The notes under the pieces were generated by a model that saw nothing but the letters and a program-made list of their open reading frames with translations, was not told where the DNA came from and made no database searches. Source: Candidatus Cloacimonadales bacterium (lineage in GTDB: Bacteria; Cloacimonadota; Cloacimonadia; Cloacimonadales; JAFGVF01). From it: a DNA stretch of 64,000 bases. The first letter of the stretch is position 1. Every line of letters starts with the position of its first letter. The stretch lies in NCBI GenBank assembly GCA_963678315.1, contig OY782781.1, positions 704,001 to 768,000 on the forward strand, written 5' to 3'. Shown here piece by piece: positions 40,660-62,278 of this stretch. A program made the translations under genes and the position numbers.

Positions 40660-41863
40660 ATAGAACAGAGATAACACTGATTATACTGATAAAGATGATA
40701 GTATAAATTGAAAAGTTAAAGATGGGTGAAAGCCTTTTCTGTAGATACACACGGTCGTGTGTATAATGAAGTACATGTAAATGTACGAATAATTAAAAAT
40801 ATAACTGGGAACGCTGGCTGCTAGCCGGCTCTTAAGTCAGGCGAAGACTGATCTAGCCGGCTAAAGAATAAATATATAGTGTGAAAAATGGTGCTTCAGA
40901 AAGCCTTTCTGTAAGTCATAGGGCGAAGCATGCTTAAAAATAGATGTTTTGATAGAACACTGATGACACAGATTGAGCAGATGAAGATGGTTAAGTTTTA
41001 AGTTTTTTGAAGGTCATTCTAAGTAGGGTAAACTGGAAGAATCAAACCAGAAAAATAGAACACAGACAACACTGGATTATACTGATAATGATTTTACTTG
41101 AAGAAGAATTAATTTAATGATAGAAAGTTTTTTTTAGAAGATATACCAAGTAGAATTAATAATTATGTTTTATCAGTGGTTTTCAGTCTAATCTGTGTCA
41201 TCAGCGTTCTATATATATTTAGTAGGGAGGGTAAATGAGTGATTATCTTCATTCTGAATTAACAGATAAAATAATCAATGCATTTTATGAAGTATATAAT
41301 ACTTTAGGTTATGGTTTTCTTGAAAAGGTTTATGAAAAAGCTATGATAAATGAATTAAAATCTAAAGGATTAACTTGTTCTGAACAATATAAAATCGATG
41401 TATTCTATAAAAATAAACCTATTGGTGAATATTATGCTGATATTGTTGTTAATGATTTAGTTATATTAGAATTGAAAGCAAATGATTCTTTAGTTAAAGA
41501 GAATGAATATCAATTGATAAATTATCTTAAAGCCACAAATTTTGAGATTGGTTTGTTGTTTAATTTTGGTAAGAAACCAGAAATAAGAAGAAAAATTTTC
41601 ACAAACAATCGAAAATAGAAAGATAGAACACAGAAAACACTGATTATACAGATAAAGATGATTAAAAATATTAACTATGGACCTAAAGCAAAAGAATATT
41701 GGGAGAAATCAGATTTTCTCTGTTTAATCTGTGTCATCAGTGTTCCATATGCAGACAACACTGATCAGGCAGATAATAAGGGTTTTAATTAATCATATAT
41801 TTAAAAAAAGCTATTTAAAGAAAGCGGTGATTTTCAGTTTAATCTGTGTCATCTGTGTTCTAT
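40660..41863. mobile_element. GxxExxY element 1: array of ATAGAACAC-type direct and inverted arms around a GxxExxY gene
   Basis: Forward arms at 40660, 40952, 41055, 41623 and 41752; reverse arms at 41181-41212, 41718-41749 and 41831-41863. Mobility is inferred. Confidence 0.55.
41235..41618 (+). CDS. GxxExxY protein (PD-(D/E)XK-like)
   Basis: LGYGFLEKVY, YYADIVV..ILELKA, QLINYL and GLLFNFG motifs; GGGAGG RBS. Confidence 0.93.
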   Translation: MSDYLHSELTDKIINAFYEVYNTLGYGFLEKVYEKAMINELKSKGLTCSEQYKIDVFYKNKPIGEYYADIVVNDLVILELKANDSLVKENEYQLINYLKATNFEIGLLFNFGKKPEIRRKIFTNNRK

Positions 41864-43309: not shown

Positions 43310-43868
43310 CCACTAAGACACAAAGTCTCTAAGAATTTATCCACTAATACACACTAATTGACACTAATGAAGAAAGATCTAATATATAATTTTACCACAA
43401 AGACTCGAAGGCACTAAGTTAATTTATATTTATGAGAATTATAGATATTGATGAATTAAATATTTTAAGTAAGAAGGTTGTTGATGCAATATTTAAGGTT
43501 CATAGGGAACTAGGACCTGGATTACTTGAAAATATCTATGAAAAGTGTTTATGTATTGAGTTGGCTTCTAAAAATTTAAAATACAGTAATCAAGTTGCTC
43601 TACCAGTTTTTTATAAAGGCAAAGATATTGGTTTGGATTATAGACTTGATATCTTAGTTGAAGATTCAATTATTATTGAACTTAAATCTGTTGAGAAAAT
43701 GAATCCTGTTTATAAAGCTCAGTTGTTAACATATTTGAAACTATCTAACAATAAACTAGGTTTTTTGGTAAATTTTAATGTACCTTTAATAAAAGATGGT
43801 ATTAAAAGAATTATTAACTAACTTAGTGGCTTAGAGTCTTTGTGGTGAAAAATAATTTAGTGGTCAAT
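43308..43868. mobile_element. GxxExxY element 2 with 28-bp inverted repeats
   Basis: 43394-43421 and 43819-43846 are complementary at 26/28 positions; extra left arms at 43308 and 43338. Confidence 0.6.
43432..43821 (+). CDS. GxxExxY protein
   Basis: LGPGLLENIY, YRLDILVED..IELKS, AQLLTYL and GIKRIIN motifs. Confidence 0.93.
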   Translation: MRIIDIDELNILSKKVVDAIFKVHRELGPGLLENIYEKCLCIELASKNLKYSNQVALPVFYKGKDIGLDYRLDILVEDSIIIELKSVEKMNPVYKAQLLTYLKLSNNKLGFLVNFNVPLIKDGIKRIIN

Positions 43869-45323: not shown

Positions 45324-45332
45324 AAGGAAAAA

Positions 45333-45803
45333 ATGGATATCCAATATTATATATGTGAAAAGAATATTGATAAAAATGAACTAGAAGAATTCTTTTTTAG
45401 AATAAATTCTGAATTTACCCCTTATTTAGAAAAAAATTTAAATATATGTGAATATGCTGAAAAATTATCCAAAAATGCAATTATTTTTATAACTAAAGTT
45501 AATAATATAATTGTCGGTATGGCAGCTATATATTATAATACTGTCCCAGATTACTCTTTCGGAACATTTATGGGGGTCCTTAAAGAATATAGAAAATATG
45601 GAATAGCTCTTCAATTAGAAGAAAATTACATAGAATATTTTAAAAAATTAAATACACCTGGAATTAAATCTGTTGTAAACTGTAATAACAAAAACGCATT
45701 AAAACTACATAAATATTTTGGATTTGAGATTTTAAATAAATTTTATGATGAAATAATGAATATTGAAAAATATGAATTAATTTTGAAATTTAATAAAAAA
45801 TAA
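45333..45803 (+). CDS. GNAT N-acetyl/acyltransferase
   Basis: V.KEYRKYGIA and N..AL..H..FGF motifs. Confidence 0.8.
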   Translation: MDIQYYICEKNIDKNELEEFFFRINSEFTPYLEKNLNICEYAEKLSKNAIIFITKVNNIIVGMAAIYYNTVPDYSFGTFMGVLKEYRKYGIALQLEENYIEYFKKLNTPGIKSVVNCNNKNALKLHKYFGFEILNKFYDEIMNIEKYELILKFNKK

Positions 45804-45814
45804 GGAATTTATAT

Positions 45815-46030
45815 ATGAAAAAATTTGTTGAATTATTTAAAGAAGTTATGGAAATAGAAAATGTTGACGTTAATGGTAAAACAATATTCAGAGAATTAGA
45901 AGATTGGGATTCTTTAGCAGTTTTATCTGTCTTAGCAATGATAAATGATGAGTATGATATAACAATAGCAAGAGAAAAGTTTGAAAAAGCAAATACTCTT
46001 GAAGAGTTGTTTGCTCTTATTTCGGAGTAA
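45815..46030 (+). CDS. Acyl carrier protein
   Basis: Small acidic protein with a WDSL phosphopantetheine site. Confidence 0.9.
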   Translation: MKKFVELFKEVMEIENVDVNGKTIFRELEDWDSLAVLSVLAMINDEYDITIAREKFEKANTLEELFALISE

Positions 46031-46032
46031 AA

Positions 46033-47019
46033 GTGTTTGGATCTACTGTTGTAAAAATTGAATATTACTTGCCAGAAAAGATTTTAAGCAATGACAATTT
46101 GATGCAAGAGTTTCCTGAATGGGATGCTTCAAAAATTGAAAAGAAAGTTGGAATAAAAAATAGGCATGTGACTACAGCTAAAGAATCAGCTCTAGATATG
46201 GCAATTAAGGTTTCATCTAAGGTCCTTGAAAACTTTGATTCCAACAAAATTGATTTTATTCTTTTTTGCACTCAAAGTCCAGAATATTTTTTACCTTCTG
46301 GTGCATGCTTAATTCAAGATAAATTAGGTTTAAGAAAAAATATTGGTGCTTTAGATTTTAATTTAGGTTGTTCAGGCTTTGTATATGGTTTAACATTAGC
46401 TGACAGTTTGATTAAGTCAGGCGCAGCAAGTAATGTCTTACTAATTAACTCTGAGACTTATTCAAAACATATTCATCCTCAAGATAAGAGTAATCGTGCT
46501 ATTTTTGGAGATGGAGCAGCTGCAACTATTATTAGCACATCAAATATTCCCAAAATAGGAAAATTTGTTTTAGGAACTGATGGCTCTGGATTTAATAAAT
46601 TAATTGTGAGAGATGGAGCGTTTAGAGATGTTAACCATCAACGTGAATATGAAGTATCTAATTATAATGGTAAGTATATTTATATGAACGGTCCTGATAT
46701 ATTTAATTTTACAATGGATGTTGTTCCTAAAGTAGTTTCTGATTGCTTAGATAGTAATAACACAGAAATAGATAAAATTGACTTCTTTATATTCCATCAG
46801 GCTAATAAATACATTTTAGATTTTCTCAGAAAAAAAATAAAGATACCTAAAGAAAAATTCTATGTTAATATGGAAGAAACCGGAAATACTGTATCTGCAA
46901 CCATTCCTATTGCACTAAGGCAGTGCTTGGATAACAAATTAGTTAAGGCTGGAGACAAAGTAATGCTGGTTGGATTTGGTGTAGGATTGTCTTGGGCAAG
47001 CTGTATAATTGAGGTGTAA
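46033..47019 (+). CDS. FabH-like 3-oxoacyl-ACP synthase III
   Basis: LGCSGF, FGDGA, HQAN, GNT and GFGVG motifs. Confidence 0.92.
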   Translation: MFGSTVVKIEYYLPEKILSNDNLMQEFPEWDASKIEKKVGIKNRHVTTAKESALDMAIKVSSKVLENFDSNKIDFILFCTQSPEYFLPSGACLIQDKLGLRKNIGALDFNLGCSGFVYGLTLADSLIKSGAASNVLLINSETYSKHIHPQDKSNRAIFGDGAAATIISTSNIPKIGKFVLGTDGSGFNKLIVRDGAFRDVNHQREYEVSNYNGKYIYMNGPDIFNFTMDVVPKVVSDCLDSNNTEIDKIDFFIFHQANKYILDFLRKKIKIPKEKFYVNMEETGNTVSATIPIALRQCLDNKLVKAGDKVMLVGFGVGLSWASCIIEV

Positions 47020-48030
47020 ATGGCTCTAGTTAAATACAATAATGTTAAAATATCAGCAATCTCATGTTGTGTTCCTAAAAATAAACTTGATAACTTAAAT
47101 TTGGAAGAATATGGGTCAGTTGATGAGAGAAAGAAATATATTAATACAACCAATGTTAGGTTTAGAAGAATTGCAGATGAAAAGACTACATCTTCTGACT
47201 TATGTTATCAAGCAGCAAGTCAACTATTACAAGATAATGATATTGAACCAAATGATATCGATGTCTTAATTTTTGTAACACAAACTCCTGATTACTTTTT
47301 ACCTGCTACTTCCATAGTTTTACAGCATCAATTGGGATTGCCAATGTCTACGGTTGCTTTTGATGTTAATCTCGGATGTAGTGGTTATGTGAATGGATTG
47401 AATATTGCATTTTCTTTTTTACAGAATAATGCGTTTAAAAAAGTATTATTGTTGTGTGGTGACACTATCAGTAAAATTACTGACTTAACAGATAAAACAA
47501 CTGGTTATTTATTTGGGGATGCAGGTTCAGCAACTTTGATAGAAAGTTCTGAAAAAACTATGTCTGAGGTATATTTTTCTTTGAACAGTGATGGTTCAGA
47601 TAGTAGTTTACTGAAGACCGAGAATGGAGCGTTCCGAAATTTGGATAAAAAACCAAGTTTATATATGGATGGCATGGGGATTTTCAATTTTACGATTTCT
47701 AAAATCCCTAAAGATGTGAAAAAACTCTTTGATTTTTCAAATACTGAAATTGGTGCAATTGATTACGTATATTATCATCAAGCAAATAAGTTTATTAATG
47801 ATTTTATATCAAAAAAACTCAAATTGTCTTCTTCACAGACTCCCTTTTCAATGTATGAGTATGGTAACACTAGTTCAGCATCAATACCTTTAACCATATC
47901 AAATCATTTCACAAATAGAATTGATGAAAAGATAAAAGTAATTTTATCTGGATTTGGAGTTGGATTATCATGGGGACATTGTATATTGGATTTAGAAAAT
48001 GTAAATATTTCTAAAATAAAGGAGATATGA
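47020..48030 (+). CDS. FabH-like 3-oxoacyl-ACP synthase III (second copy)
   Basis: LGCSGY, FGDAG, HQAN, GNTSSAS and GFGVG motifs. Confidence 0.92.
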   Translation: MALVKYNNVKISAISCCVPKNKLDNLNLEEYGSVDERKKYINTTNVRFRRIADEKTTSSDLCYQAASQLLQDNDIEPNDIDVLIFVTQTPDYFLPATSIVLQHQLGLPMSTVAFDVNLGCSGYVNGLNIAFSFLQNNAFKKVLLLCGDTISKITDLTDKTTGYLFGDAGSATLIESSEKTMSEVYFSLNSDGSDSSLLKTENGAFRNLDKKPSLYMDGMGIFNFTISKIPKDVKKLFDFSNTEIGAIDYVYYHQANKFINDFISKKLKLSSSQTPFSMYEYGNTSSASIPLTISNHFTNRIDEKIKVILSGFGVGLSWGHCILDLENVNISKIKEI

Positions 48031-48791
48031 AAGTGATAGATCCATTTAGTTTAAAAGATAAACTTATATTGATAACAGGGGCATCTTCGGGTATTGGAAG
48101 ACAATGTGCAATCTCATGTTCTGAAATGGGTGCGAAATTAGTATTGGTTGCAAGAAATGAAAAGAAACTAAAAGAAGTTTTGTCTGAACTCTATGGTGAA
48201 GGTCACATCTATTTCTCTCAAGATATTACAGATTATTCAGAAATTAAGAAGATAGTTGAAAAAACTGTAGAAAAACTTGGTAAGTTGGACGGTTTTATTC
48301 ATTCTGCTGGTATTGAAATAACAAAACCATTAAAAGTAATGAAACCAGAAGATTATGAGATGATTTATTCAGTAAATGTAATATCAGGTTTTGAGTTTGC
48401 AAAACATGTCTCTAAGAAGAAAAACAGTAACGATTTGGCTAGCTTCATCTATATCTCTTCAGTAATGTCTGTAACGGGCAATTCAGGATTAACTGCCTAT
48501 TGTTCTTCAAAAGGAGCATTAGTTGCTGGGGTTAGGGCTTTAGCGATTGAGTATGCAAATAGAAAAATTAGATTCAATTGTATTTCTCCAGGTTATATTA
48601 AGACCGAAATGATGGATAATATAAAACAAAAGCTGAGTGGATCTGAGATAAATAAATTACAAGGGTACTTTCCTTTAGGTTTAGGCGATCCTAGGGATAT
48701 CGCTAACTCCTGTATATATCTTTTATCTGGTGCCTCAAAGTGGGTTACAGGCACCAATTTAATAGTAGATGGGGGTTATAGTGCAAAATAA
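48027..48791 (+). CDS. SDR oxidoreductase (FabG-like ketoreductase)
   Basis: TGASSGIG, YCSSK and VDGG motifs. Confidence 0.9.
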   Translation: MKVIDPFSLKDKLILITGASSGIGRQCAISCSEMGAKLVLVARNEKKLKEVLSELYGEGHIYFSQDITDYSEIKKIVEKTVEKLGKLDGFIHSAGIEITKPLKVMKPEDYEMIYSVNVISGFEFAKHVSKKKNSNDLASFIYISSVMSVTGNSGLTAYCSSKGALVAGVRALAIEYANRKIRFNCISPGYIKTEMMDNIKQKLSGSEINKLQGYFPLGLGDPRDIANSCIYLLSGASKWVTGTNLIVDGGYSAK

Positions 48792-48824
48792 GTTAATCAC
48801 TTTTTTTAAAATAAACGTGATAGA

Positions 48825-50171
48825 TTGCCGGGTTTTATGATTGGAGGAATAACAAGTGTAAAGAGACTATTTAAAGATAATTATTTGCGACTAGTAAATT
48901 TTTCTTTTTATTTATTAGCAACAATTGTAAATACCGTACTTATGTTGATAATTAATCCTTTTATTGCTAAAAATCTATCACATAGTGATTACGCAATCAT
49001 AGGTTATCATGGGGCCTTCCAGATTATTCTTTTACCACTAGTTAATTTTTCGTTAACTAGTTACTATTTAAGAAATTATTTCTTAACACCCAAAGATAAG
49101 TTGTTAGAATTGAGAGATACTATCAACAAAATGATTTTGTATTTCGGCGGGTTTTCTTTGATAATTTGTACTATTGGATTTTATATATATTTTAAAGTTA
49201 AAAATGTGCAAATACCTTTTTTCCCATTTTTTTTGTTTTCAATAATAACTGTATATATAAATAACTTTATAACAATGAAACAAATTGATTTCAGATTAAA
49301 TAAACAAGCAAAAAAATATTTTATTCTAACTATATTATTAAGGATTACAATAATAATTTCTACTGTCTTTCTTGTAATAGTTATTCCTTTAGGTGCTTTG
49401 GGAAGAATGTTAGCAACATTAGTTGGTACTGTAGTGTTTGGTTTGTTTTGCTATAAAACTATGAATTCAGGGATGAAAGTAAACAGAACAATTATTAAAA
49501 GTGCTTTTAGTTTTTGTTGGCCATTGGCATTAGCTTCTATTTTATGGTATTTTTTAAGCGGTGTAGACATCTTACTTCTTGAGAAATTAAACGATATTAG
49601 AAATATGGCACTGTATAATATCGCTATTGGCCTGACATCTAAAATTGCAATATTTTATGCTGCATTGGCTCAAACTTTTGAGCCTGATATATATAGAGCA
49701 ATTGCTTCAAAGAAATATATTAGAATGATATTAATAGCTTTAAGCATCATTTTACTTAATATAATTCCTAATGCATTACTTTTCATTTTTGCTAAACCTG
49801 TTGTAAATATATTAACTTACGGTAGGTATATAGAAGCATCAAAATTTATCAGAATTCTAATATTTAAAAACATATCAATGTCTCTATATTATACAGTAAT
49901 TCTAATTATTGTCGGTTTAGGATATACTAAATCTGAGCTTCTTAATAGAATTATAGGAGCAGTATTGTGTTATGTTATGTTCGATAAAATGATAAAGAAC
50001 TATGGCTATATAGGTGCTGCTTGGGGGCAAACTTTTTCATTTTTAATATTAACTACAATAGGAATATTGTTTATACTTGTGCAAAGAAAAAAGATGTTTG
50101 AGATATCAGAAAAAAACTTATACAACAAAGGAAAAAAAGATGGGTTTTCGATTACTAACTCCAAAAGATAG
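48825..50171 (+). CDS. wzx: Oligosaccharide flippase (start uncertain)
   Basis: About 12 TM helices, MATE-like pattern (G..GAA), polysaccharide-locus context. Confidence 0.75.
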   Translation: MPGFMIGGITSVKRLFKDNYLRLVNFSFYLLATIVNTVLMLIINPFIAKNLSHSDYAIIGYHGAFQIILLPLVNFSLTSYYLRNYFLTPKDKLLELRDTINKMILYFGGFSLIICTIGFYIYFKVKNVQIPFFPFFLFSIITVYINNFITMKQIDFRLNKQAKKYFILTILLRITIIISTVFLVIVIPLGALGRMLATLVGTVVFGLFCYKTMNSGMKVNRTIIKSAFSFCWPLALASILWYFLSGVDILLLEKLNDIRNMALYNIAIGLTSKIAIFYAALAQTFEPDIYRAIASKKYIRMILIALSIILLNIIPNALLFIFAKPVVNILTYGRYIEASKFIRILIFKNISMSLYYTVILIIVGLGYTKSELLNRIIGAVLCYVMFDKMIKNYGYIGAAWGQTFSFLILTTIGILFILVQRKKMFEISEKNLYNKGKKDGFSITNSKR

Positions 50172-51198
50172 TAATACGTGGAAAGATTTACTAACAGAAT
50201 TAAACTATTTTCAGCAAGATACATACTATTCTCCAGAGTATTATCAGCTTTTTGAAAACAATGGTTTTGGTTTAGCAAAGTGTTTTTATTTTTATAAAGG
50301 AAATCATTTTGTTTTGTACCCATTTTTACTTAATTCTGTGAATAATTTAGGTTATAGTTTAGAACAAAATTATTATGATATTCAAGGTGTTTATGGTTAT
50401 AATGGTATTGTTTCAAATACAACTGAGAATAGCTTTTTATCTGAGTTTTACGATACTTTTGATCAATTCTGTAGCGATGAAAACATTATTGCTGAATTTA
50501 TAAGATACAATCCTATATTAAAAAATCATGAACTTGAACAAAGATTTGAGCCTATATATATACTCGATAATGTTATGATAGATGTCTCGAATAATATTGA
50601 TGAAATCTGGAAAAATTCTTTTGATAATGGTGTTAGAAAAGCAGTCAAAAAAGGGATTCGGAATAATCTTATTTACGATTCATATACAGGTGAAGAAATA
50701 TCAGATGATTATCTTCATGAGTTTTTGAAAATTTATTATTCAACAATGCATAGAAATAAAGCAAAGAACTTCTATTATTTCACAAAGCAATTTTTTTACA
50801 ATATGCAATTTCTAATTCCAAAAAATATACATTTTTCTTATGTTAAAAAAGATGAGAAAATTATATCTGTTGAGCTAAATATTGTAAATAAATTGAATTC
50901 TTATGGCTTTTTAGGTGGGACTCTAGCAGAGTATTTTTCAATGTCTCCAAATAGTTTTTTGAGATTTGAGTTAATAAAAGATCTGAAAAAAAGAGGAGTA
51001 AAAAATTATTCAATTGGTGGCGGAATTACAAAAAATGATTCAAAATATAAGTTTAAAAAAAGCTTCTCAAAAAAAATTGATCAACGTTTCTACATAGGTA
51101 AAAAGATTCATAACAACAATATATATTCTCAAGTAGTCACTGAGTGGGAAAAGAATAGTGGACATATAAGCAATAATTTACTGAGATATAGGGACTAG
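50140..51198 (+). CDS. FemAB/GNAT-like acyltransferase
   Basis: YYSPEY, YGYNG, IIAEFIRYNP and IGGG...FKKSF motifs; start ATG 50140. Confidence 0.7.
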   Translation: MGFRLLTPKDSNTWKDLLTELNYFQQDTYYSPEYYQLFENNGFGLAKCFYFYKGNHFVLYPFLLNSVNNLGYSLEQNYYDIQGVYGYNGIVSNTTENSFLSEFYDTFDQFCSDENIIAEFIRYNPILKNHELEQRFEPIYILDNVMIDVSNNIDEIWKNSFDNGVRKAVKKGIRNNLIYDSYTGEEISDDYLHEFLKIYYSTMHRNKAKNFYYFTKQFFYNMQFLIPKNIHFSYVKKDEKIISVELNIVNKLNSYGFLGGTLAEYFSMSPNSFLRFELIKDLKKRGVKNYSIGGGITKNDSKYKFKKSFSKKIDQRFYIGKKIHNNNIYSQVVTEWEKNSGHISNNLLRYRD

Positions 51199-51201
51199 GT
51201 T

Positions 51202-52416
51202 ATGAAAATATTACTTATATGTCATTTCACAAATCAAGATATTCAAAAAAAAATTAACCCCAAGAAAAAAGTAAATGAATTCGCCCCATGGATATCTTAT
51301 TATATCAATGAATTCAAGAAACATAAAGAACATACATTCTATATCATTTCTCCTCATAGGTGGATTTCGCGGAATATTACTTATAAAGAGGAAAATATTG
51401 TATATCATTTTTATTCTTGTGGTATTCCATTCTATGGTCGACATTGGCCGAGTAAATTTAGATTCGATTATTTGACAAAATATTATTTTAATAAACGTAA
51501 GGTTAAAAAAATAGTTAATAATATTAAACCAGATGTGATTAATCTAATTGGTGCGGAAAATCCTTACTATACATCGACAATACTTCAATTTATTAAACAT
51601 TATCCTATATTGTTGACAATCCAAGGATTTGCATTTAAAACAAAAAAAAAAAAAGTTACTTCAAACTATGTTAATTATTTAATTAGTTTAGAAAATAAAG
51701 TAATTAGATTAGTTGAAAATCAAAGTATCAGAACTCATGATATGGAAAGAACAGTAAAAAAAATTAATCCCAAAGCCAAAGTACACTGGAACGATTTTCC
51801 AACTCCATATGGTAACCTTAAGGTCTCAAGTCCACAAAAGAAATATGATTTCGTTTTTTTTGCAAGAGTTACTCAAGATAAGGGAATTTTTGATTTTCTT
51901 AATGCAATTAGAGCAATAGCAAAGCTAAAAAAAGATGTTACTGCAATAATTGTTGGGCCATGTGGTCTATGTATGCAAAGAATAATTGAAAATTATATAA
52001 AAGATAATGATTTGATAGGAAATATTAAACTAATTGGTTTTCTTGATACTCAGTTAGAGTTGTTTGAGCGAGTGAGCGAGGCAAAGATCTCTGTATTACC
52101 TACGTACAATGATATAATTTCTGCCACAATAATTGAAAGTATGGCGTTAAAAATACCAGTAATAGCTTACCGAACGGGTAGTATTCCTGAAGTTAATAAA
52201 AATAATGAGAACATAATAATATGTGAGCAAGGAAACACAGATATGTTAACAGATAGTATGTACGATTTACTCATTAATGAAGATAAACAGAAAGCATTAT
52301 CAAAATCAGGTTACTTATGGGTATCAAAAACATTTGATAATAACACTAAAATGAATAAGTACTTCTCAGTGTTGGATGATCTAATCAAAGATTTTATGGA
52401 GAAAAAGTATGAATGA
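51202..52416 (+). CDS. Glycosyltransferase family 4
   Basis: AR..KG and IESMALKIPVI...GSIPE motifs. Confidence 0.85.
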   Translation: MKILLICHFTNQDIQKKINPKKKVNEFAPWISYYINEFKKHKEHTFYIISPHRWISRNITYKEENIVYHFYSCGIPFYGRHWPSKFRFDYLTKYYFNKRKVKKIVNNIKPDVINLIGAENPYYTSTILQFIKHYPILLTIQGFAFKTKKKKVTSNYVNYLISLENKVIRLVENQSIRTHDMERTVKKINPKAKVHWNDFPTPYGNLKVSSPQKKYDFVFFARVTQDKGIFDFLNAIRAIAKLKKDVTAIIVGPCGLCMQRIIENYIKDNDLIGNIKLIGFLDTQLELFERVSEAKISVLPTYNDIISATIIESMALKIPVIAYRTGSIPEVNKNNENIIICEQGNTDMLTDSMYDLLINEDKQKALSKSGYLWVSKTFDNNTKMNKYFSVLDDLIKDFMEKKYE

Positions 52417-53329
52417 GAAAGCACCTGTTTTATTAATAACATTCAACCGTCCTGATACAACAATAAAAGTTTTAGAAAAAATAAAAGAAGCTAAAGTTAG
52501 CAAGCTATACATTTTTAACGACGCTCCACGGAAAGGAAATGAAAATGACCAAAAAGCACGTTCTGAAATCAAAGAAATGTTAAATATAATTGATTGGGAT
52601 TGTGAACTAAATATTTGGTTTTCAGATATCAATTTAGGTTGTGGACCTGGTCCTTCTTCTGCAATTACATGGGCTTTTGAGAATGAAGACCGTTTGGTTA
52701 TTTTAGAAGACGATTGCGTACCAGCTATTCCTTTCTTTAATTATTGTAATGAGCTACTTGAAAGATACAAGAATGATACACGTATATGGATTGTTAGTGG
52801 CAATAATTATTCTGAAGAAAAAAAAGTTTCAGATTCTGATTACTTTTTTTCTACCTATGGCCATTCCTGGGGGTGGGCAACATGGAAAAGATGTTGGGAA
52901 AATTTTGATTTAGAAGTTAAACAATTTCCTAAATATTTCAAAGAAAAGAGGTTTTACGATGCTTTTGGTAGTAAGAAAGAAGCCAACTTTTTTGCTAAAA
53001 TTCAAAAAAAAATATTTGAAGATAAAACTATTTTTGGTCATGTTTGGGATTTTCAAGCAGGTTTTATGGTAAGAGCGAATGGTGGCTTATGTATTAATCC
53101 AAGTAAGAATCTAGTCACAAATATAGGATTTGTTGGTACACATTCAAGCACAAAAAATAAATTTCATAACAGGCCTGTGGATAAGAATTATAGAATTACA
53201 AAGCATCCAGAATTTATTTTGGTTAGCAAAGAATATGATGAGTATCATTTTAGAACCCATTGGAAAAAAATGAAACCTAGTTTGTTAGATAGGGTTTGTA
53301 TTAAAATAAGAAAAATAGTGAAAATATGA
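52409..53329 (+). CDS. GT-A fold glycosyltransferase (HlpA-like)
   Basis: FNRP, ILEDD, WGWATW and NLVTNIG motifs. Confidence 0.75.
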   Translation: MNEKAPVLLITFNRPDTTIKVLEKIKEAKVSKLYIFNDAPRKGNENDQKARSEIKEMLNIIDWDCELNIWFSDINLGCGPGPSSAITWAFENEDRLVILEDDCVPAIPFFNYCNELLERYKNDTRIWIVSGNNYSEEKKVSDSDYFFSTYGHSWGWATWKRCWENFDLEVKQFPKYFKEKRFYDAFGSKKEANFFAKIQKKIFEDKTIFGHVWDFQAGFMVRANGGLCINPSKNLVTNIGFVGTHSSTKNKFHNRPVDKNYRITKHPEFILVSKEYDEYHFRTHWKKMKPSLLDRVCIKIRKIVKI

Positions 53330-54576
53330 CAAGATTGTCAAAATTCAATTTTATTGATTACATAGTATTTGCGACTTTAACATGTACATTGTTTAATGTA
53401 ATTGTTACTAAACTACCTCCAGGGATAGGGAGCGTAAGATTTTTTTGGGGGCCATTAACTATCATTACGTTATTATTATTTGCAAATTCTATTTATAGTG
53501 TCTCTCCTGTAAAACAACTGATGCTGTTTGGTTTTGTAGTTATGCTTTTATTTAATATGATATTTTGGAGAAATTTATCAGATTGGAATAGAAGAAATTT
53601 TTTAGATGATTTCTATAATATTTTTTTATACACTATAATAATATCGTACTATATAAGATCAAAAAAAGTTGAAAACCTATATTTGATATCAAAAATATCT
53701 TTTATTTACATAATAATTACTGCAATTATGACAAATATTGGTTTATTTTTTGACCCTTTAATAATAAGGGATTCTGCTGTGGGTTTTGGCACTAACGTAC
53801 GTCAAAAGGAAATTTACAACTTATATGGGACAGCTCGCTATGGATATGCACAAGCTTTTGTTTTATTGATACCATTTTGTTTTTATTCTCTTAAACATAA
53901 TAAAAACTCTAATGTAAATAAAAGAATCATGTCAGTCTGTATAGCTTTAATTGTAATAACAACATTAAGATCACAGGTTTTTGCAAATATTATTAATCTA
54001 GTTTTTGTATTTATTTTTTCAATAATTTCAATAGAAAAACGAAAGAGTATGGTGTTACTTATCACTCCTGTAGTTTTGATTGTCATTATTTTACCTAAGA
54101 CAATTTATAGCGATATTATACGTTCATTTACTAGGTATTTTTCAGAAGATTCTAATACATTTCTCAAACTTAATGATTTTGCTGATTTTTTTATTGACCC
54201 AGAAATTGATATGTCCACCGGTACTGGTGGAAGGGCTGCAAGATATCCCTTGTTATGGGAAGCTTTTTTACAAAGCCCTATTGTTGGACACTCATACCTT
54301 GATAAAGGATTAGATATAGAAGCAGGGGGGCATTTGTTTTGGATGAATAGGCTAGCTCATTTTGGGTTAATAGGCTTCTCTATGTTAGTTCATTCTCTTT
54401 ATACCACATTCAAAACTATTAAAAGGAACATAATCAAAAACGAGGGTGTCTATTATTATTTTCTTTCTATAATGTCATTTTTACTATTTGGTTTAATGAA
54501 AAATATTGCAGGAAGAGAGATTTGGGCAATAATATTAGTTGTTATTCCTGGATTGTATTTGAGAAAGAAAAGATAG
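53326..54576 (+). CDS. wzy: Putative O-antigen polymerase/ligase-like membrane protein
   Basis: About 10 TM helices, large loop with R and H residues (GGRAARY...P..G...GGH), locus context. Confidence 0.6.
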   Translation: MTRLSKFNFIDYIVFATLTCTLFNVIVTKLPPGIGSVRFFWGPLTIITLLLFANSIYSVSPVKQLMLFGFVVMLLFNMIFWRNLSDWNRRNFLDDFYNIFLYTIIISYYIRSKKVENLYLISKISFIYIIITAIMTNIGLFFDPLIIRDSAVGFGTNVRQKEIYNLYGTARYGYAQAFVLLIPFCFYSLKHNKNSNVNKRIMSVCIALIVITTLRSQVFANIINLVFVFIFSIISIEKRKSMVLLITPVVLIVIILPKTIYSDIIRSFTRYFSEDSNTFLKLNDFADFFIDPEIDMSTGTGGRAARYPLLWEAFLQSPIVGHSYLDKGLDIEAGGHLFWMNRLAHFGLIGFSMLVHSLYTTFKTIKRNIIKNEGVYYYFLSIMSFLLFGLMKNIAGREIWAIILVVIPGLYLRKKR

Positions 54577-54588
54577 GAGAGTAAAGCA

Positions 54589-55596
54589 ATGTTCAAAAAT
54601 AAAAAATTATTAATTACTGGGGGTACTGGTTCATTTGGAAACGCAGTACTAAGACGTTTTATCAACACAGATATTGAAGAGATTAGAATCTTCAGTAGAG
54701 ATGAGAAGAAGCAGGATGATTTAAGAAAGAAGCTTAATAATCCTAAAGTTAAATTTTACATTGGTGATGTTAGGGATTTAAGTTCTGTTAATACAGTTAT
54801 GAAAGATGTGGACTATGTTTTCCATGCTGCAGCTCTAAAGCAGGTTCCTTCTTGTGAATTTTTCCCTATTGAGGCAGTGAAAACCAATATTCTTGGTTCA
54901 AACAATGTAATGCAGTCTGCTATGATGCACGGAGTAAAGAAACTTATTGTACTTTCTACTGACAAAGCGGTTTATCCGATTAACGCTATGGGCATTTCCA
55001 AGGCTATGATGGAGTTGGTTATGGTGGCTAACTCTCGTAATGGTGGCGAAGAGACTACTCTCTGCGGAACTCGTTACGGAAACGTAATGGCTTCACGTGG
55101 TTCCGTTATTCCATTGTTCGTAGACCAAATCAAAGCAGGGAAGCCAATCACAATCACAGATCCAAACATGACTCGTTTCATGATGACTCTGGATGATGCT
55201 GTGGACTTAGTCTTATTTGCTTTCGAGCATGGTAAGCAAGGTGATAGATTTGTTCAAAAAGCTCCAGCTTGTACAATTGAAGTTCTTGCAAAAGCTTTAA
55301 AAGAATTGTATAAAGCAGATAATGAAATTAAGTTCATTGGTACACGTCATGGAGAAAAGCTCTATGAATCTCTAGTAAACAGAGAAGAAATGCTTAAGGC
55401 AGAAGATATGGGAGACTATTATAGAATTCCAGCTGACACAAGAGATCTTAACTATAACAAATACTTCTCAGAAGGTGATTCTGGTATTGAAAAGATCACA
55501 GAATATACTTCTCATAATACCCACCGAATGGATGTGGAAGAGACTAAGAAGTTACTGCTTAAGTTAGAGTTTATAAGGGAAGACCTAAATCTTTAG
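54589..55596 (+). CDS. fnlA: UDP-GlcNAc 4,6-dehydratase/5-epimerase (FnlA/CapE/WbjB)
   Basis: TGGTGSFG, SRDEKKQ, HAAALKQVPSCE, STDKA..PINAMG.SK and RYGNVMASRGSV motifs. Confidence 0.92.
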   Translation: MFKNKKLLITGGTGSFGNAVLRRFINTDIEEIRIFSRDEKKQDDLRKKLNNPKVKFYIGDVRDLSSVNTVMKDVDYVFHAAALKQVPSCEFFPIEAVKTNILGSNNVMQSAMMHGVKKLIVLSTDKAVYPINAMGISKAMMELVMVANSRNGGEETTLCGTRYGNVMASRGSVIPLFVDQIKAGKPITITDPNMTRFMMTLDDAVDLVLFAFEHGKQGDRFVQKAPACTIEVLAKALKELYKADNEIKFIGTRHGEKLYESLVNREEMLKAEDMGDYYRIPADTRDLNYNKYFSEGDSGIEKITEYTSHNTHRMDVEETKKLLLKLEFIREDLNL

Positions 55597-56226
55597 CCAC
55601 AAATAGCACAGATAAGAAATAATTTTTATCCACTAATTACACAAATAACACGAATTAGAAGATAGTAAGATATTTTAGCCACGAATAACACAAATCTACA
55701 CAAATAAGAAAAATATATTATTATAATGCTAGATGTATATCATAAAGAGTTATGTTATAAAATTATAGGGTGTGCATTTGAAGTGTACAATACTCTTGGA
55801 CCAGGTTTTCTTGAAAAGGTCTACGAAAAAGCCCTATTGCATGAGTTTGCTATAAACAATCTAAATGCAGAATCACAAGTACCATTAAAGATTATATATA
55901 AAGATACAGTTGTTGGAGATTACTTTGCTGACATCATAGTTGATAACAAAGTAATACTAGAATTAAAGTCATGTACAACAATAAATAAATCTCATCAAGC
56001 TCAATTAATAAATTATCTTGTTGCTACGGGAATCAAGGTAGGGTATGTTTTGAACTTTGGTAATGATAATAAACTTGAAAATATAAGAATTGTTAAATAG
56101 TATTATTTGTGAAGATTTGTGCTATTCGTGGCAAAAAAGTCTTCTTTAAATTAGTGTAATTTGTGAAATTCGTGGATAGTTTTCTTTATTGTTTATCAGT
56201 GTTAATCTGTGCTATCCGTGGCTAAG
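55592..56226. mobile_element. GxxExxY element 3 with three nested inverted-repeat pairs
   Basis: 55593-55613/56205-56225 (19/21), 55627-55656/56149-56178 (26/30), 55678-55707/56103-56132 (28/30). Confidence 0.65.
55726..56100 (+). CDS. GxxExxY protein
   Basis: LGPGFLEKVY, YFADIIVD..ILELKS, AQLINYL and LNFG motifs. Confidence 0.93.
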   Translation: MLDVYHKELCYKIIGCAFEVYNTLGPGFLEKVYEKALLHEFAINNLNAESQVPLKIIYKDTVVGDYFADIIVDNKVILELKSCTTINKSHQAQLINYLVATGIKVGYVLNFGNDNKLENIRIVK

Positions 56227-56243
56227 AAAAAAAAGGATTTAAA

Positions 56244-57350
56244 ATGAAAATTGGCATAACAGGACAAGCTGGCTTTATCGGCTCTCACCTATACAACAAC
56301 TTAGGCTTGCATGAAGGTATTGAAAGAATCCCCTTTGAAGATGATTTCTTCAAATCTGAGGAATCATTAGATAATTTTGTTAAGCAGTGCGACGTTATTG
56401 TTCACTTAGCGGCTATGAACCGTCATAATGACCCTGAAGTAATTTATAATACAAATATAGAATTAGTAGAAAAGATAATTGCAAGTATCGATAGATGTGC
56501 AACCAATCCACATATTATAATGTCTTCTTCAACTCAAGAGACTCGTGATAATTTATATGGTAAGTCTAAGAAAGAAGGTAGAGAGAAGTTTGTAGCATTT
56601 GCTCAACAAGGAAAGTGTTATTTTACAGGCTTGGTGATTCCTAATGTTTACGGTCCTTTCGGAAGGCCTTACTATAATTCAGTAACATCAACATTTTCTC
56701 ATTTGATAGCTAATAATAAAGAAGTTGAAATTCAGATTGATGCAGAGCTTGAAATGATCTACGTTCAGGATCTGTGCCAAGAAATTATTTCTGTAATTAA
56801 AAATAAAGAATACACTGATGAAAAGCTTCTGCCTTATACAGGCAAATCACTAGTTTCAGATCTAAGAGATAAGATAAAAGCTTTCCATGAAACCTATATT
56901 TCTGGCATAATCCCAAAATTTGAAAACAGATTTGATTTAACACTTTTTAATACCTATAGATGTTACCTTCCACAGGAATATTTTCCTGTAGATTATACTA
57001 AGCATTCTGATAATCGTGGCTCTTTCGTGGAAATTATTAAGAGTTCAGGGCAAGGACAATTCTCCTTCTCAACGACCAAACCTGGAATAACCAGAGGGAA
57101 TCATTATCATACTAGAAAAGTGGAAAGGTTTGCAGTTATTTCTGGAAAAGCTTCTATCAAGCTTAGAAAAATTGGAACAGACCAGGTTATAGAATATATT
57201 CTTGATGGAGAAAAACCAGGCTATGTAGATATGCCTATTTGGTATACTCACAACATCACTAACATTGGTGATGAAGAACTTATAACACTCTTCTGGATTA
57301 ATGAGTTCTATAATCAAGAAGATCCTGATACTTTCTACGAAGAAGTTTAG
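56244..57350 (+). CDS. fnlB: UDP-2-acetamido-2,6-dideoxy-hexulose reductase/epimerase (FnlB/CapF/WbjC)
   Basis: TGQAGFIG, HLAAMNR and YGKSK motifs; C-terminal cupin (DNRGSF, RGNHYH, THNI). Confidence 0.9.
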   Translation: MKIGITGQAGFIGSHLYNNLGLHEGIERIPFEDDFFKSEESLDNFVKQCDVIVHLAAMNRHNDPEVIYNTNIELVEKIIASIDRCATNPHIIMSSSTQETRDNLYGKSKKEGREKFVAFAQQGKCYFTGLVIPNVYGPFGRPYYNSVTSTFSHLIANNKEVEIQIDAELEMIYVQDLCQEIISVIKNKEYTDEKLLPYTGKSLVSDLRDKIKAFHETYISGIIPKFENRFDLTLFNTYRCYLPQEYFPVDYTKHSDNRGSFVEIIKSSGQGQFSFSTTKPGITRGNHYHTRKVERFAVISGKASIKLRKIGTDQVIEYILDGEKPGYVDMPIWYTHNITNIGDEELITLFWINEFYNQEDPDTFYEEV

Positions 57351-57363
57351 TGTCATACTTTAG

Positions 57364-57413
57364 CCTTAAGGGTCTCCTTGAAAAAAAGGCGTTTTTTCAA
57401 AGAGGCAAGTAAG
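57364..57413. repeat. About 50-bp mini inverted-repeat element (4 copies in window)
   Basis: CCTTAAGGGTCTCCTTGAAAAA..TTTTTCAAAGAGGCAAGTAAG; also at 12315, 18998 and 32196. Confidence 0.85.
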
Positions 57414-57436
57414 GGCCTAGTAATAAAGATTAAAAC

Positions 57437-57694
57437 TAGCCACAGATAACAAAGATAAAAAAAGAAGAAAATATTTTAGCCACAGATAACACGGATTTGC
57501 ACTGATAAAATGCTTAATAAACATCATAGCTTGTTTCATGTTATTTATAGTTAATTTACGAGTATTTTTTTACAGAAAGTTATGTTGGTATTAATTTACT
57601 ATCCATATTTGTCTTTATCTGTGTTTATCAGTGTTATCCGTGGCTAAAAGATGGATTGTCTTATTTGTGAAGATTTGTGCTATTTGTGGCTAAA
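57437..57694. repeat. Gene-less copy of the GxxExxY-type nested hairpin
   Basis: 57474-57509/57614-57649 complementary at 30/36; outer arms at 57437 and 57661-57694; about 100-nt AT-rich loop. Confidence 0.8.
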
Positions 57695-57707
57695 TAAAGG
57701 AATTATT

Positions 57708-58826
57708 ATGAATAAAATAAAAGTTATAACAATTGTCGGAACCCGTCCTGAGATCATCAGACTTTCCGAAGTAATGAAATTATTAGATAAACACACGAAT
57801 CACGTGACTGTTCATACAGGACAAAACTATGATTTCGAACTGAACGAGATCTTTTATCGCGATTTAGAATTAAGAAAACCAGACTATTATCTTGGAATCA
57901 ATACTTCTTCTTTAGGTCATGTTTTAGGTGAAACCCTTATTAAAGTGGAAGAAGTTTTTAATAAAGAAAAACCTGATGCTGTCTTAATTTTAGGTGATAC
58001 TAATGCATCTATAGCTGGAATTATTGCTAAAAGAATGAAGATACCAGTATTCCACATGGAAGCAGGTAACCGTTCTTTTGATTTCAATGTTCCTGAAGAG
58101 ATAAACAGACGTATCATCGACCATGTTGCGGATTTCAACTTAGTTTATACTGAAAATTCACGAAGACACCTTCTCTCTGAAGGACTTCCTCATAGACATA
58201 TCTATGTGACTGGTTCTCCAATGTTTGAAGTTTTAAATAAGAATATTGAGAAAATTAAGAATTCTGATATTTTAAAGAAATTAGAACTCAAGGAAAAAGA
58301 GTATTTTATAGTTTCAACCCACAGAGAAGAAAATGTAGATAATGAGGAAAATCTAAAAGAGATTGTAAATACTTTAAACGCTCTTACTGTAAATTATGAC
58401 CTTCCGGTTATTGTTTCTACTCACCCAAGAACTAGAAAGCGATTAGAGATGCTCAAAGATATTTCTATAGATAGTAGAATTCAATTCCTTAAACCATTTG
58501 GTTTCTTCGACTATAATAAATTACAAATGTCTTCTATCTGTGCAATCTCCGATAGCGGAACCATAAGTGAAGAATCATCAATGCTTAAGTTTCCTGCCGT
58601 GACTATCAGAAACTCACTAGAAAGACCAGAAGCTATGGACTATGGCTCAATTATCTTGACAGGTTTGAAAGCTGATGTAGTTCTTAACTCAGTAAAACTT
58701 GTACTTGAGGAACCAATGAACTTTAATAAATGTCCAGAATATCAAACAGATAATACATCATACCGTGTCCTCAAGATAATCATGGGACTAAGCGGATTGA
58801 AGAATAGATGGATGGGGATTAAGTGA
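57708..58826 (+). CDS. fnlC: Non-hydrolysing UDP-sugar 2-epimerase (FnlC/CapG/WbjD)
   Basis: GTRPEIIRL, HTGQNYD, GDTN, HMEAGNR..D..VPEE.NR, HREEN and SDSGT..EE motifs; start ATG 57708. Confidence 0.9.
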   Translation: MNKIKVITIVGTRPEIIRLSEVMKLLDKHTNHVTVHTGQNYDFELNEIFYRDLELRKPDYYLGINTSSLGHVLGETLIKVEEVFNKEKPDAVLILGDTNASIAGIIAKRMKIPVFHMEAGNRSFDFNVPEEINRRIIDHVADFNLVYTENSRRHLLSEGLPHRHIYVTGSPMFEVLNKNIEKIKNSDILKKLELKEKEYFIVSTHREENVDNEENLKEIVNTLNALTVNYDLPVIVSTHPRTRKRLEMLKDISIDSRIQFLKPFGFFDYNKLQMSSICAISDSGTISEESSMLKFPAVTIRNSLERPEAMDYGSIILTGLKADVVLNSVKLVLEEPMNFNKCPEYQTDNTSYRVLKIIMGLSGLKNRWMGIK

Positions 58827-61686: not shown

Positions 61687-62278
61687 CACCACAAAGACAC
61701 AAAGAACACTAATAGTTGAAGTAACACAAAAAGAGATTAAACACGGAAGCACAAAAATTCACAAAAACACGATTTATAATAACGTAATGTATATCAAAAG
61801 AGATTGTTATGGAGTCTGTAGATAAACAAAAGATGGCACGTCTAAATAATCTAAGTAAGAAAATTGTAGATTGTTTGTATTGTGTGCATAGAGAACTAGG
61901 TCCAGGTCTGCTTGAAAGAGCCTACCATCTTAGTTTATGCCATGAGTTAGATTTACGGAATATAAAATATCAAAATGAAGTTTATGTTCCAATAAACTAT
62001 AAAGATATGAGAATTGAATCAGCATACAGATTAGATTTGTTAATTGAAGATGAGATAATTATTGAGCTGAAAGCTGTGAAAAAATTAAATCACTATTTGC
62101 ATCCCAATTATTGACATATTTGCGATTAAGTAATAAGAAATTAGGTTTGTTAGTAAATTTCAATGTTAGCAATATTGGCAAAGGTATTAAAAGAATTATT
62201 AATTGATAAAACTCTTACTAAATATGCAAGAGACTTTTTTGTGTCTTATAGTATTTTTTAGAGATTTTTTGTGTTTAA
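61687..62278. mobile_element. Degenerate GxxExxY element 4
   Basis: Left arms CACCACAAAGACACAAAGAACACTAA (61687-61712) and 61737-61767; only short complementary remnants on the right (62235-62247, 62265-62278). Confidence 0.45.
61809..62206 (+). pseudogene. Frameshifted GxxExxY gene
   Basis: LGPGLLERAY..YRLDLLIE..ELKAV in frame 0. The C-terminus ([37 protein letters not shown], stop 62204-62206) is in the -1 frame, with the shift at about 62076-62084. Confidence 0.85.

Follow-up and report, generated by a model that had tools for sequence, protein, structure and literature searches.

A GxxExxY nuclease gene enclosed by nested arrays of a phased word in a surface-polysaccharide locus of a Cloacimonadales bacterium: a candidate selfish cassette

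In the single-contig genome of a Candidatus Cloacimonadales bacterium (32.8% G+C), a small gene encoding a GxxExxY family protein lies between an FnlA-like and an FnlB-like gene for surface-polysaccharide synthesis, enclosed by three nested pairs of inverted arms. We analyzed this arrangement within a stretch of 64,000 nucleotides (nt), hereafter the window, which comprises positions 704001-768000 of the one 2.99-Mb contig. The element occupies 55592-56228 of the window, and its arms proved to be arrays of a short word that recurs about once per helix turn and always faces the gene. With moderate confidence, we read the element as a selfish cassette that consists of a GxxExxY nuclease and its own cognate arms, the nuclease recognizing the arms. 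Binding, cleavage, the mechanism of mobility, and RNA processing by or of the cassette are what we infer from this arrangement, and they are phrased conditionally below.

Nested arms around a single GxxExxY gene

An earlier interpretation of this DNA, made from its sequence alone (the sequence-only reading), had described three mirror-ordered arm pairs around one GxxExxY open reading frame (ORF) of 124 amino acids. An inverted-repeat search recovered all three: an outer pair (55593-55613 with 56205-56225; 21 nt, 90%), a middle pair (55627-55662 with 56143-56178; 36 nt, 83%), and an inner pair (55667-55707 with 56103-56143; 41 nt, 88%). These pairs nest in mirror order, and cross-pairings give shorter or weaker matches (70-86%). 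Aligned locally with the reverse-complemented downstream flank, the upstream flank scored 84, whereas 500 dinucleotide shuffles reached at most 35 and 500 random genomic pairs at most 34; a chance origin of the arm pairing is excluded. The coordinates also agree with the earlier placement of the FnlA-like stop codon (TAG, 55594-55596) inside the outer left arm, and of the outer right arm just ahead of the ribosome-binding site of the FnlB-like gene: about 16-18 nt separate that arm from the FnlB-like ATG at 56244, and AAGGA lies between them. The parts of the cassette are as follows.

55592..55621, + strand: L1, outermost left module, with two inward words (CACAAAT at 55598, CACAGAT at 55607); includes the FnlA-like TAG
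55625..55662, + strand: L2, left module, with three inward words at 55631, 55640, and 55649
55667..55712, + strand: L3, innermost left module, with words at 55680, 55689, and 55699; ends 14 nt before the GxxExxY ATG
55726..56100, + strand: GxxExxY gene, 124 amino acids, sole ORF inside the arms; TIGR04256, PF13366; predicted PD-(D/E)XK fold with E30, D69, E79xK81, and Q93xxxY97
56103..56143, - strand: R3, innermost right module, partner of L3, with three inward words at 56130, 56121, and 56111
56143..56178, - strand: R2, right module, partner of L2, with three inward words at 56174, 56165, and 56156
56193..56228, - strand: R1, outermost right module, partner of L1, with three inward words at 56220, 56211, and 56201

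The arms are arrays of a 7-nt word, CAC-N-R-A-T, at a spacing of 9-10 nt, about one helix turn, and the consensus of a module is roughly TTAGC-CACRRAT-N2-3-CACRRAT-(N2-3-CACRRAT)-AAG. Eight words stand on the + strand at the left and nine on the - strand at the right, every one of them facing the gene; between 55592 and 56228 there are no outward words, and none falls within the GxxExxY ORF. The sequence-only reading had treated the arms as simply complementary. Their pairing is real, but each arm is built as a phased array, and the conserved word it repeats is specific to the cargo.

When the region 55585-56235 was folded as RNA in silico, it formed one long stem, as had been anticipated, at -169.6 kcal/mol compared with -117.5 +/- 6.5 for shuffled sequence (z -8.0; 20 shuffles). 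The predicted minimum-free-energy structure joins L1 to R1, L2 to R2, and L3 to R3.

Recurrence of the architecture at GxxExxY loci

We fetched 80 GxxExxY loci, which by record title represent many phyla, and 74 were testable after six with short flanks were set aside. An inverted-repeat (IR) score of at least 30 was obtained at 36 of the 74 loci (at least 40 at 24, at least 50 at 14), compared with 0 of 74 shuffled flanks and one of 123 neighboring ORFs, an enrichment that supports the earlier view of a self-contained, recurrent unit. The arm words at all loci take the form C[AG]C-N-[AG]A, for example CACGGAT, CGCGGAT, CACGAAA, CGCAGAC, and CACCGA. Inward phased pairs of C[AG]CN[AG]A were present on at least one side of the gene at 60 of the 74 loci and on both sides at 31; outward pairs were present upstream at eight loci and downstream at 10, with 1-11 in the reversed-sequence controls. 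Of the spacings between words, 103 measured 10 nt and 35 measured 9 nt.

These counts bear on the simplest alternative, that a common intergenic repeat merely happens to flank an unrelated small gene. The module is indeed dispersed: the window has 12 matches (0.5 expected), and the genome has 59 arms, found as profile matches in 24 clusters. Coincidence does not, however, account for the mirror order, in which partner arms are most identical to each other, or for the strict inward polarity of the words, and it is already contradicted by the same layout at 36-60 of the 74 loci, other phyla included, compared with that single neighboring ORF. We regard it as hardly credible.

Constraint on the words

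Mismatches between left and right arms were scored in the 36 IR-bearing loci. They affected 15 of 395 positions (3.8%) at the five fixed letters of the word, 14 of 78 (17.9%) at its free fourth letter, and 135 of 900 (15%) in the spacers (Fisher test, fixed letters versus spacers, p 4e-10; fourth versus fixed letters, p 4e-5), a comparison that is partly circular because the words are defined by a pattern, although taking the union of both arms lessens this effect. As the fourth letter, which lies within the stem, is as mismatched as the spacers, the result fits word recognition and not selection for pairing. The constraint on the words thus argues, at the level of sequence, for their recognition over mere pairing. 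On the sense strand of the same 36 loci there was no RNA-type wobble bias, with 23 G-U mismatches, 33 A-C mismatches, and 108 others (p 0.23).

An account at the RNA level alone would see the cassette as an intervening sequence whose arms serve only as a transcript stem trimmed by RNase III, while the nuclease ignores them; such trimming would separate or stabilize the fnlA, cassette, and fnlB messages. The long, stable predicted stem is what this account expects, and the genome encodes an RNase III (246.9 bits, cut-off 166). GxxExxY genes are co-oriented with their upstream neighbor in 69 of 75 cases, above a baseline of 80% taken from this genome (p 0.005), and sister cassettes carrying a four-helix-bundle gene share the same junctions in relatives. 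The intervening sequences (IVS) with an ORF in 23S rRNA, as excerpted from PMC4990558, are an exact precedent. Nevertheless, a stem needs no word that is shared across phyla at 9-10-nt phasing; pairing is loose at the fourth letter and in the spacers but tight at the fixed letters; G-U mismatches are not in excess; and co-orientation with the downstream neighbor (58 of 67) does not rise over the baseline (p 0.13). Further, the invariance of the catalytic residues, described next, implies that the GxxExxY protein does something. We consider the account unlikely.

The GxxExxY protein

The protein scores 140.2 bits with the TIGR04256 GxxExxY profile (cut-off 35) and 143 bits with PF13366, PDDEXK_3 (cut-off 22). 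The assignment to the PD-(D/E)XK superfamily with an intact D..ELK motif, made in the sequence-only reading, was upheld. The GxxExxY motif (G27-F-L-E30-K-V-Y33), the catalytic D69 and E79-L-K81, and Q93xxxY97 are all intact; G27, L29, E30, Y33, D69, E79, K81, Q93, and Y97 are invariant across 79 sequences; and the predicted fold agrees. In an AlphaFold model, the 124-residue protein has a predicted local distance difference test score (pLDDT) of 94.3 and a predicted template-modeling score (pTM) of 0.87. Foldseek ranked the Cas4 protein SSO0001 (4ic1, E 1.8e-4) above lambda exonuclease, RecE, the nuclease domains of AddAB, and Hjc. VIA-align gave a Z of 9.6 for 4ic1 (root-mean-square deviation 4.2 over 100 residues) and 8.2 for 3ijm, after which restriction enzymes, CinB, and Hjc level off at Z 7-7.6; nearly all of its best 50 rows (Z 9.6 to 5.8) are PD-(D/E)XK nucleases. 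Sequence matches to Cas4 are weak (Pfam, E 0.0046; PADLOC, E 6e-4), and the PADLOC search returned these weak matches without assigning a defense system. A PDB sequence search with a profile of six GxxExxY proteins gave a chance match only (S100-A8, E 0.47).

Judged from the modeled fold, the GxxExxY protein represents a PD-(D/E)XK nuclease in minimal form and comes closest to the Cas4/RecB clade. QxxxY is a marker of that clade, and the protein has E, D, ExK, and QxxxY in common with Cas4/RecB nucleases (SSO0001, 4ic1; lambda exonuclease; AddAB). With 124 residues it has only half their size, and it differs from them further in its association with repeat arms and its lack of a conserved cysteine. 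An iron-sulfur cysteine cluster is a feature of Cas4 and AddB, whereas no cysteine occurs in the invariant or at least 90% conserved columns of the 79 sequences, which leaves no conserved iron-sulfur cysteines.

The family is large: it numbers 15,987 cluster representatives at E<=1e-3, of which 4,188 reach E<=1e-10. Among the best 150 relatives, about 24 carry two GxxExxY domains fused in tandem (250-290 amino acids), with the catalytic residues present in the first half and absent from the second; the one fusion that we modeled is predicted to be compact and two-lobed (pLDDT 93.9, pTM 0.85). These natural fusions suggest that the dimer is the working unit of the nuclease, and a tandem fusion would be a built-in asymmetric dimer, possibly a nicking form. 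GxxExxY had no match in 50,697 phage records and was found in eight of 72,556 plasmid records, all rated non-mobilizable, a near-absence indicating that it is not a typical mobilome gene. The sole function listed for PDDEXK_3/GxxExxY in the relevant part of PMC3424549 is 'Unknown'.

Other copies and gene-less arms in the genome

TIGR04256 has six matches in the genome, corresponding to five genes, four in the window and one at 1.94 Mb. Besides the gene at 55726..56100, the window contains the following related elements.

43394..43847, + strand: second GxxExxY cassette, gene 43432..43821, with enclosing inverted arms of word flavor CACAAAG / CACTAAG
41235..41618, + strand: third GxxExxY gene, between complete small hairpins of CACAGA/CACTGAT words, not in one loop
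61851..62200, + strand: fourth GxxExxY copy, broken in two frames (model positions 2-83 and 76-116), with weak CACAAAG-type arms
57431..57696, no strand: gene-less sister element at the FnlB-like / WecB-like junction, a hairpin with two levels of nesting built from the same modules (DNA fold z -5.2)

The copy at 1.94 Mb is likewise flanked by complete small CAC-word hairpins and is not inside one loop, and the copy at 61851-62200 looks like a decaying cassette. In the gene-less element, four words on the + strand (57441-57500) and six on the - strand (57623-57688) bound an ORF-free loop of ~100-135 nt, in which no GxxExxY remnant was found. Phased word pairs number 138 genome-wide, compared with two in the reversed control, and the dispersed arms are extragenic: only four of the 59 lie inside long ORFs, though such ORFs cover 87.6% of the genome. 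Because the module is dispersed in this way, the arms are not unique to the gene at 55726..56100. The idea that the gene-less loops are decayed GxxExxY genes had no support from blastx of six loops against 79 proteins; the loops are mutually unrelated. Elsewhere, at C1:2076230-2077285, a CAC-arm-bearing unit is present in five head-to-tail copies with a 260-nt period, a case of tandem amplification.

The dispersal of the arms raises another alternative, namely that they are ordinary repetitive extragenic palindromic (REP) elements, or their doublets (REPINs), moved by Y1 transposases like the REP-associated tyrosine transposases (RAYTs), with the GxxExxY gene a chance passenger. There are nine Y1_Tnp matches in the genome, and CAC-word arms occur in mosaic arrays with other repeats, some near Y1 genes (1.10-1.13 Mb). 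Excerpts of PMC3116915 describe REPINs as hairpin doublets dispersed in extragenic space. On the other hand, no phased word lies closer than 250 nt to any of the nine Y1 genes, upstream or downstream, and several are flanked by GC-rich repeats of their own; the word accompanies GxxExxY at 60 of 74 loci across phyla; and its flavor follows the resident GxxExxY arms in two genomes, as detailed below. Movement by Y1 enzymes therefore appears very improbable to us.

GC-rich hairpin repeats (CTGGGAACGC...GCCGGC type) at 38740-39140 adjoin CAC-word arms, and the same repeat type flanks Y1 genes at genome positions 1110583 and 1115151. These shared sites suggest that classical REP/RAYT elements occupy the same intergenic 'junkyards' as the CAC-word arms. 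The genome contains three parallel sets of gene plus repeat: Y1 with GC-rich REPs, GxxExxY with 9-10-nt CAC words, and a four-helix gene (995 kb) with 7-nt units.

Arm type, cargo, and resident genes

In relatives, the junctions often hold a four-helix-bundle gene instead (TIGR02436, 131-133 bits), whose product is weakly similar to Avd, a protein of diversity-generating retroelements. This family, originally recognized in 23S rRNA IVS, is present in 27 of 41 relatives, often sharing regions with GxxExxY. We analyzed 28 four-helix cassettes from relatives, two of which were dropped for short flanks; 18 of the 26 testable cassettes had an IR score of at least 30. Their arms are tandem units of varied sequence, 7 nt long in 12 cases and 8 nt in five, and a phased CRCNRA pair was found in none of the 26. 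The arm period of GxxExxY cassettes in the same comparison was 10 (18 cases) or 9 (nine cases). Across these closely related hosts, arm type therefore follows the cargo and not the host. The lone four-helix gene of the present genome (C1:995271-995597, locus L120) has inverted arms of 7-nt units of TAATTGA type, and their core occurs at 18 sites elsewhere (at most two mismatches), compared with one in the reversed control.

Word flavor differs between genomes. The gene arms of this genome (G000) use CACRRAT, and those of a relative, G014, use CACCGA and CGCAGAT. Searches of the two genomes gave the following counts.

CCACRRATNNCACRRAT, flavor of the gene arms of this genome: 46 matches in G000 (control 0), 1 in G014
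CACCGARNNCACCGA, flavor of G014 gene arms: 0 matches in G000, 73 in G014 (control 7)
CGCAGATNNCGCAGAT, flavor of G014 gene arms: 0 matches in G000, 91 in G014 (control 0)

In both genomes compared, and these are two only, the flavor of the dispersed arms equals that of the resident gene arms. A count of a single flavor against GxxExxY copy number in 41 genomes was uninformative because flavors differ between genomes. In G014 (L157 13600-14600 and L158 1100-2700), CGCAGAT-armed cassettes lie in direct tandem beside several gene fragments, with gene starts ~470 nt apart and identical flanks; tandem cassettes and fragments together point to local amplification and decay of whole cassettes.

Turnover at the fnl junctions and clustering in relatives

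Presence or absence of the element at the same junction in relatives had been proposed as a check, and relatives do show compact, gene-less, GxxExxY-filled, or four-helix-filled states, as listed here.

fnlA-fnlB, compact (<25 nt): 3 of 8 relatives (L011, L014, L025)
fnlA-fnlB, gene-less CAC-word element with unequal arm numbers: 2 of 8 (L008, L010)
fnlA-fnlB, short hairpin of four-helix-type words: 2 of 8 (L009, L013)
fnlA-fnlB, different GxxExxY gene (45% identical): 1 of 8 (L015)
fnlB-fnlC, compact: 3 of 7 relatives (L011, L014, L025)
fnlB-fnlC, GxxExxY gene: 2 of 7 (L008, frameshifted; L010)
fnlB-fnlC, four-helix gene: 2 of 7 (L009, L013)

L008 and L010 share with this genome the outer left module that follows the fnlA stop, so part of the element predates these genera. 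Of 79 family matches in 41 genomes, 10 have internal stops, and ~10 further matches are fragments. A 46-kb metagenome contig, ~93% identical to the window, follows fnlA to 55584, continues with four other letters, resumes from 55661 to ~55708, and after ~480 unlike letters matches again from 56192 onward; from this alignment, that relative would be without L1 and L2 and have other content between its arms. In three metagenome runs of related strains, the cassette piece 55795-56172 differs at 2/378, 2/378, and 9/381 letters, and the adjacent fnlA end at 15/215, 18/324, and 11/161. These short, mixed-strain contigs, in which joints with 26-30-letter sides at the repeats are unreliable, give a weak hint that the cassette may be less diverged than its flanks.

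We checked clustering of GxxExxY matches in the seven relatives that had at most four contigs and at least two matches.

G001: 3 of 3 matches in one region, span 51 kb
G003: 5 of 5 matches, span 58 kb
G005: 4 of 4 matches, span 40 kb
G007: 5 of 5 matches, span 40 kb
G009: 4 of 4 matches, span 35 kb
G014: 10 of 10 matches, span 41 kb
G027: 2 of 2 matches, span 36 kb

The region that carries the copies includes the fnl genes in G003, G007, and G010. Such clustering, together with this genome's own, gives some weight to a role that serves the host at the polysaccharide locus, in which the elements are (i) sites of breakage or recombination for the exchange of sugar modules, and hence antigen variation, or (ii) free-standing drivers that resemble homing endonucleases and would spread together with polysaccharide genes arriving at the locus. 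Copies lie within one 21-58-kb region per genome; elements in the window flank conserved nucleotide-sugar genes, and the glycosyltransferase block at 45-54.5 kb is compact; one and the same junction has different GxxExxY genes in different relatives; and the lower divergence of the cassette relative to the fnlA end, with the reservation just given, points the same way. Such a role, however, leaves the gene-less arms across the genome unexplained, as well as the one copy of this genome that lies outside the locus, at 1.94 Mb. The clustering, too, may just mark sites that tolerate insertion or through which foreign DNA enters. A host-serving role strikes us as quite unlikely.

A proposed selfish cassette and its relation to known systems

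Under the selfish-cassette reading, we postulate that the GxxExxY protein, as a dimer, would bind the phased words on one face of the DNA at both arms, either in the duplex or in a fold-back form, and would cut at both. Cutting could then lead to the gain, copying, or loss, at intergenic junctions, of the cassette and, in trans, of gene-less arm pairs. The mirror order of the modules is most simply explained if newer hairpin modules arose within older ones by insertion or duplication. Since the cassette lies in sense orientation inside a co-transcribed operon, we propose that it is expressed by read-through. In the transcript, the arms may pair into a long stem of double-stranded RNA, a possible substrate for RNase III, and trimming there, as in the 23S rRNA IVS, would keep the insertion nearly harmless.

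Several observations weigh against this reading. The paralogs in the genome are only 38-49% identical to the 124-residue protein, so there are no recent copies, and the CACNAAG flavor of the intact gene at 43432 has no phased pairs elsewhere, indicating that it was not amplified. Loops of six gene-less elements gave nothing better than E 0.17 in blastx comparison with 79 GxxExxY proteins. Inspection by eye detected no target-site duplication at 55592/56228, at 57431/57696, or in L008/L010, and the sequences included no precise empty site from a near-identical strain. Two relatives in which we found no GxxExxY match nevertheless have nine arm matches each: G017 (99% complete, 90 contigs), which also has no four-helix match, and G022 (40 contigs); both assemblies are fragmented, and in both, the arms lie in multi-copy composite repeats. 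The coupling of cargo and arms could, moreover, reflect shared inheritance of arms and gene in two lineages of descent and not recognition. Five of the six GxxExxY matches of this genome fall within 21 kb, and genes that cluster in a polysaccharide locus while gene-less arms are scattered are a poor fit to free transposition; the clustering agrees better with a locus that often exchanges DNA and that either carries the genes along or tolerates them. Finally, the fold match to Cas4 is modest, the next rows following at Z 7-8.

Two known systems resemble the cassette. According to excerpts of PMC4990558, the 23S rRNA IVS have a stem of terminal inverted repeats that RNase III cuts in mid-stem, and those with an S23p/four-helix ORF (Coxiella, Leptospira, Salmonella) share with the cassette a size of ~0.4-0.6 kb, a single small ORF between terminal inverted repeats, which form a long stem once the host gene is transcribed, and a sporadic distribution; they are regarded as selfish. 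In our relatives, TIGR02436 four-helix cassettes occupy the adjacent fnl junction. The present cassette differs in its position between protein-coding genes (Rfam had no match at E<=1 in window positions 36000-64000, and the cassette is not in 23S rRNA), in a cargo that is a PD-(D/E)XK nuclease and not a four-helix bundle, and in arms of 9-10-nt phased CRCNRA words compared with 7-8-nt units in the four-helix cassettes of relatives. REP/REPIN-RAYT systems, as far as the excerpted parts of PMC3116915 and PMC3337134 describe them, likewise have one protein gene between inverted copies of a short repeat and far more gene-less extragenic hairpin doublets and mosaic arrays than gene copies; the match between dispersed flavor and that of the resident gene is a further likeness. 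Here the differences are that the cassette protein is of the PD-(D/E)XK and not the Y1 HUH type, that the arms are multi-word arrays and not one palindrome, and that GxxExxY genes occur as several divergent copies within one locus. With no rRNA site, no four-helix ORF, and no Y1 transposase, the cassette is a variant, and not a member, of the IVS or REP/RAYT systems.

Other parallels are more distant. The ends of Tn7 and Mu are inverted and carry several inward, direct transposase-binding words, and TnsA of Tn7 is a PD-(D/E)XK nuclease of transposition; the cassette, in contrast, is ~0.6 kb long and has no DDE or other transposase partner and no target-site duplication seen by eye. Free-standing homing endonuclease genes, as in T4-like phages, are small nuclease genes between conserved genes that are present, absent, or replaced among relatives. 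They are not known to carry flanking phased inverted arrays or gene-less copies, and GxxExxY differs from them in its lack of matches among the phage records searched. The sequence-only reading held that no function had been characterized for this architecture. This stands for the architecture itself, of which we found no description in the excerpts of literature consulted (curated NCBIfam/TIGRFAMs text may say more), but it overlooked the relatives among 23S rRNA IVS and REP/RAYT elements.

More broadly, and tentatively, the GxxExxY proteins, with their ~16,000 sequence clusters, may be the enzymes of a third REP-like system across phyla, in which a minimal Cas4-like PD-(D/E)XK dimer would read the 9-10-nt phased CRCNRA words on inverted arms and mobilize both its own cassette and the far more numerous gene-less hairpins; the four-helix cassettes, with their 7-8-nt units, would be a parallel sister system, and 23S rRNA IVS only one landing site for a much broader class of elements that live in operons. 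The phased word and the architecture turn the 'unknown function' of the large GxxExxY/PDDEXK_3 family into a hypothesis that can be tested at the bench, as the sequence itself supplies substrate, mutants, and controls. If the nuclease acts on the arms, it would be a new class of enzyme among the systems that seed bacterial genomes with hairpin repeats, would account for many unannotated intergenic repeats in many phyla, and would give the 23S rRNA IVS, long a puzzle, a place in a broader family. That cassettes concentrate in surface-polysaccharide loci may be relevant to the reshuffling of such loci. Even if the nuclease leaves the arms alone, the cassette is a useful marker of operon junctions that tolerate insertion.

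The surrounding locus

The cassette lies within a same-strand run of surface-polysaccharide genes. Its neighbors are these.

54589..55596, + strand: FnlA-like UDP-N-acetylglucosamine (UDP-GlcNAc) 4,6-dehydratase/5-epimerase; TIGR04130, 574.5 bits, below the equivalog cut-off of 730
56244..57350, + strand: FnlB/WbcJ-like reductase; NF047837, 281 bits, below the cut-off of 500
from 57708, + strand: WecB-type 2-epimerase; TIGR00236, 265.5 bits, above its cut-off

In 55400-57800, sites resembling promoters or terminators were at chance level (12 and 1, compared with 11.8 and 1.0 expected), and no RNA run was listed that covers 54900-57900. The junctions of the glycosyltransferase/polymerase block at 45300-54600 are compact or overlapping and without repeat elements; repeat elements group near conserved nucleotide-sugar genes, at 38.7-43.9, 55.6-57.7, and 61.7-62.3 kb. 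Right after the FnlB-like stop, at 57363-57415, is a palindromic element of ~52 nt that has 134 blastn matches in the genome at ~100 sites, many matched on both strands, and at which read depth spikes in related metagenome runs (787 versus ~20 in run X2). An ORF listed as 57651..58826 has its first codons in the right-hand arms of the gene-less element (MDCLICEDLCYLWL...). As alignment with the WecB model sets in at residue 4 when translation is taken from 57708, the true start of the epimerase is probably the ATG at 57708, and the repeat probably adds a spurious N-terminal extension to the listed ORF.

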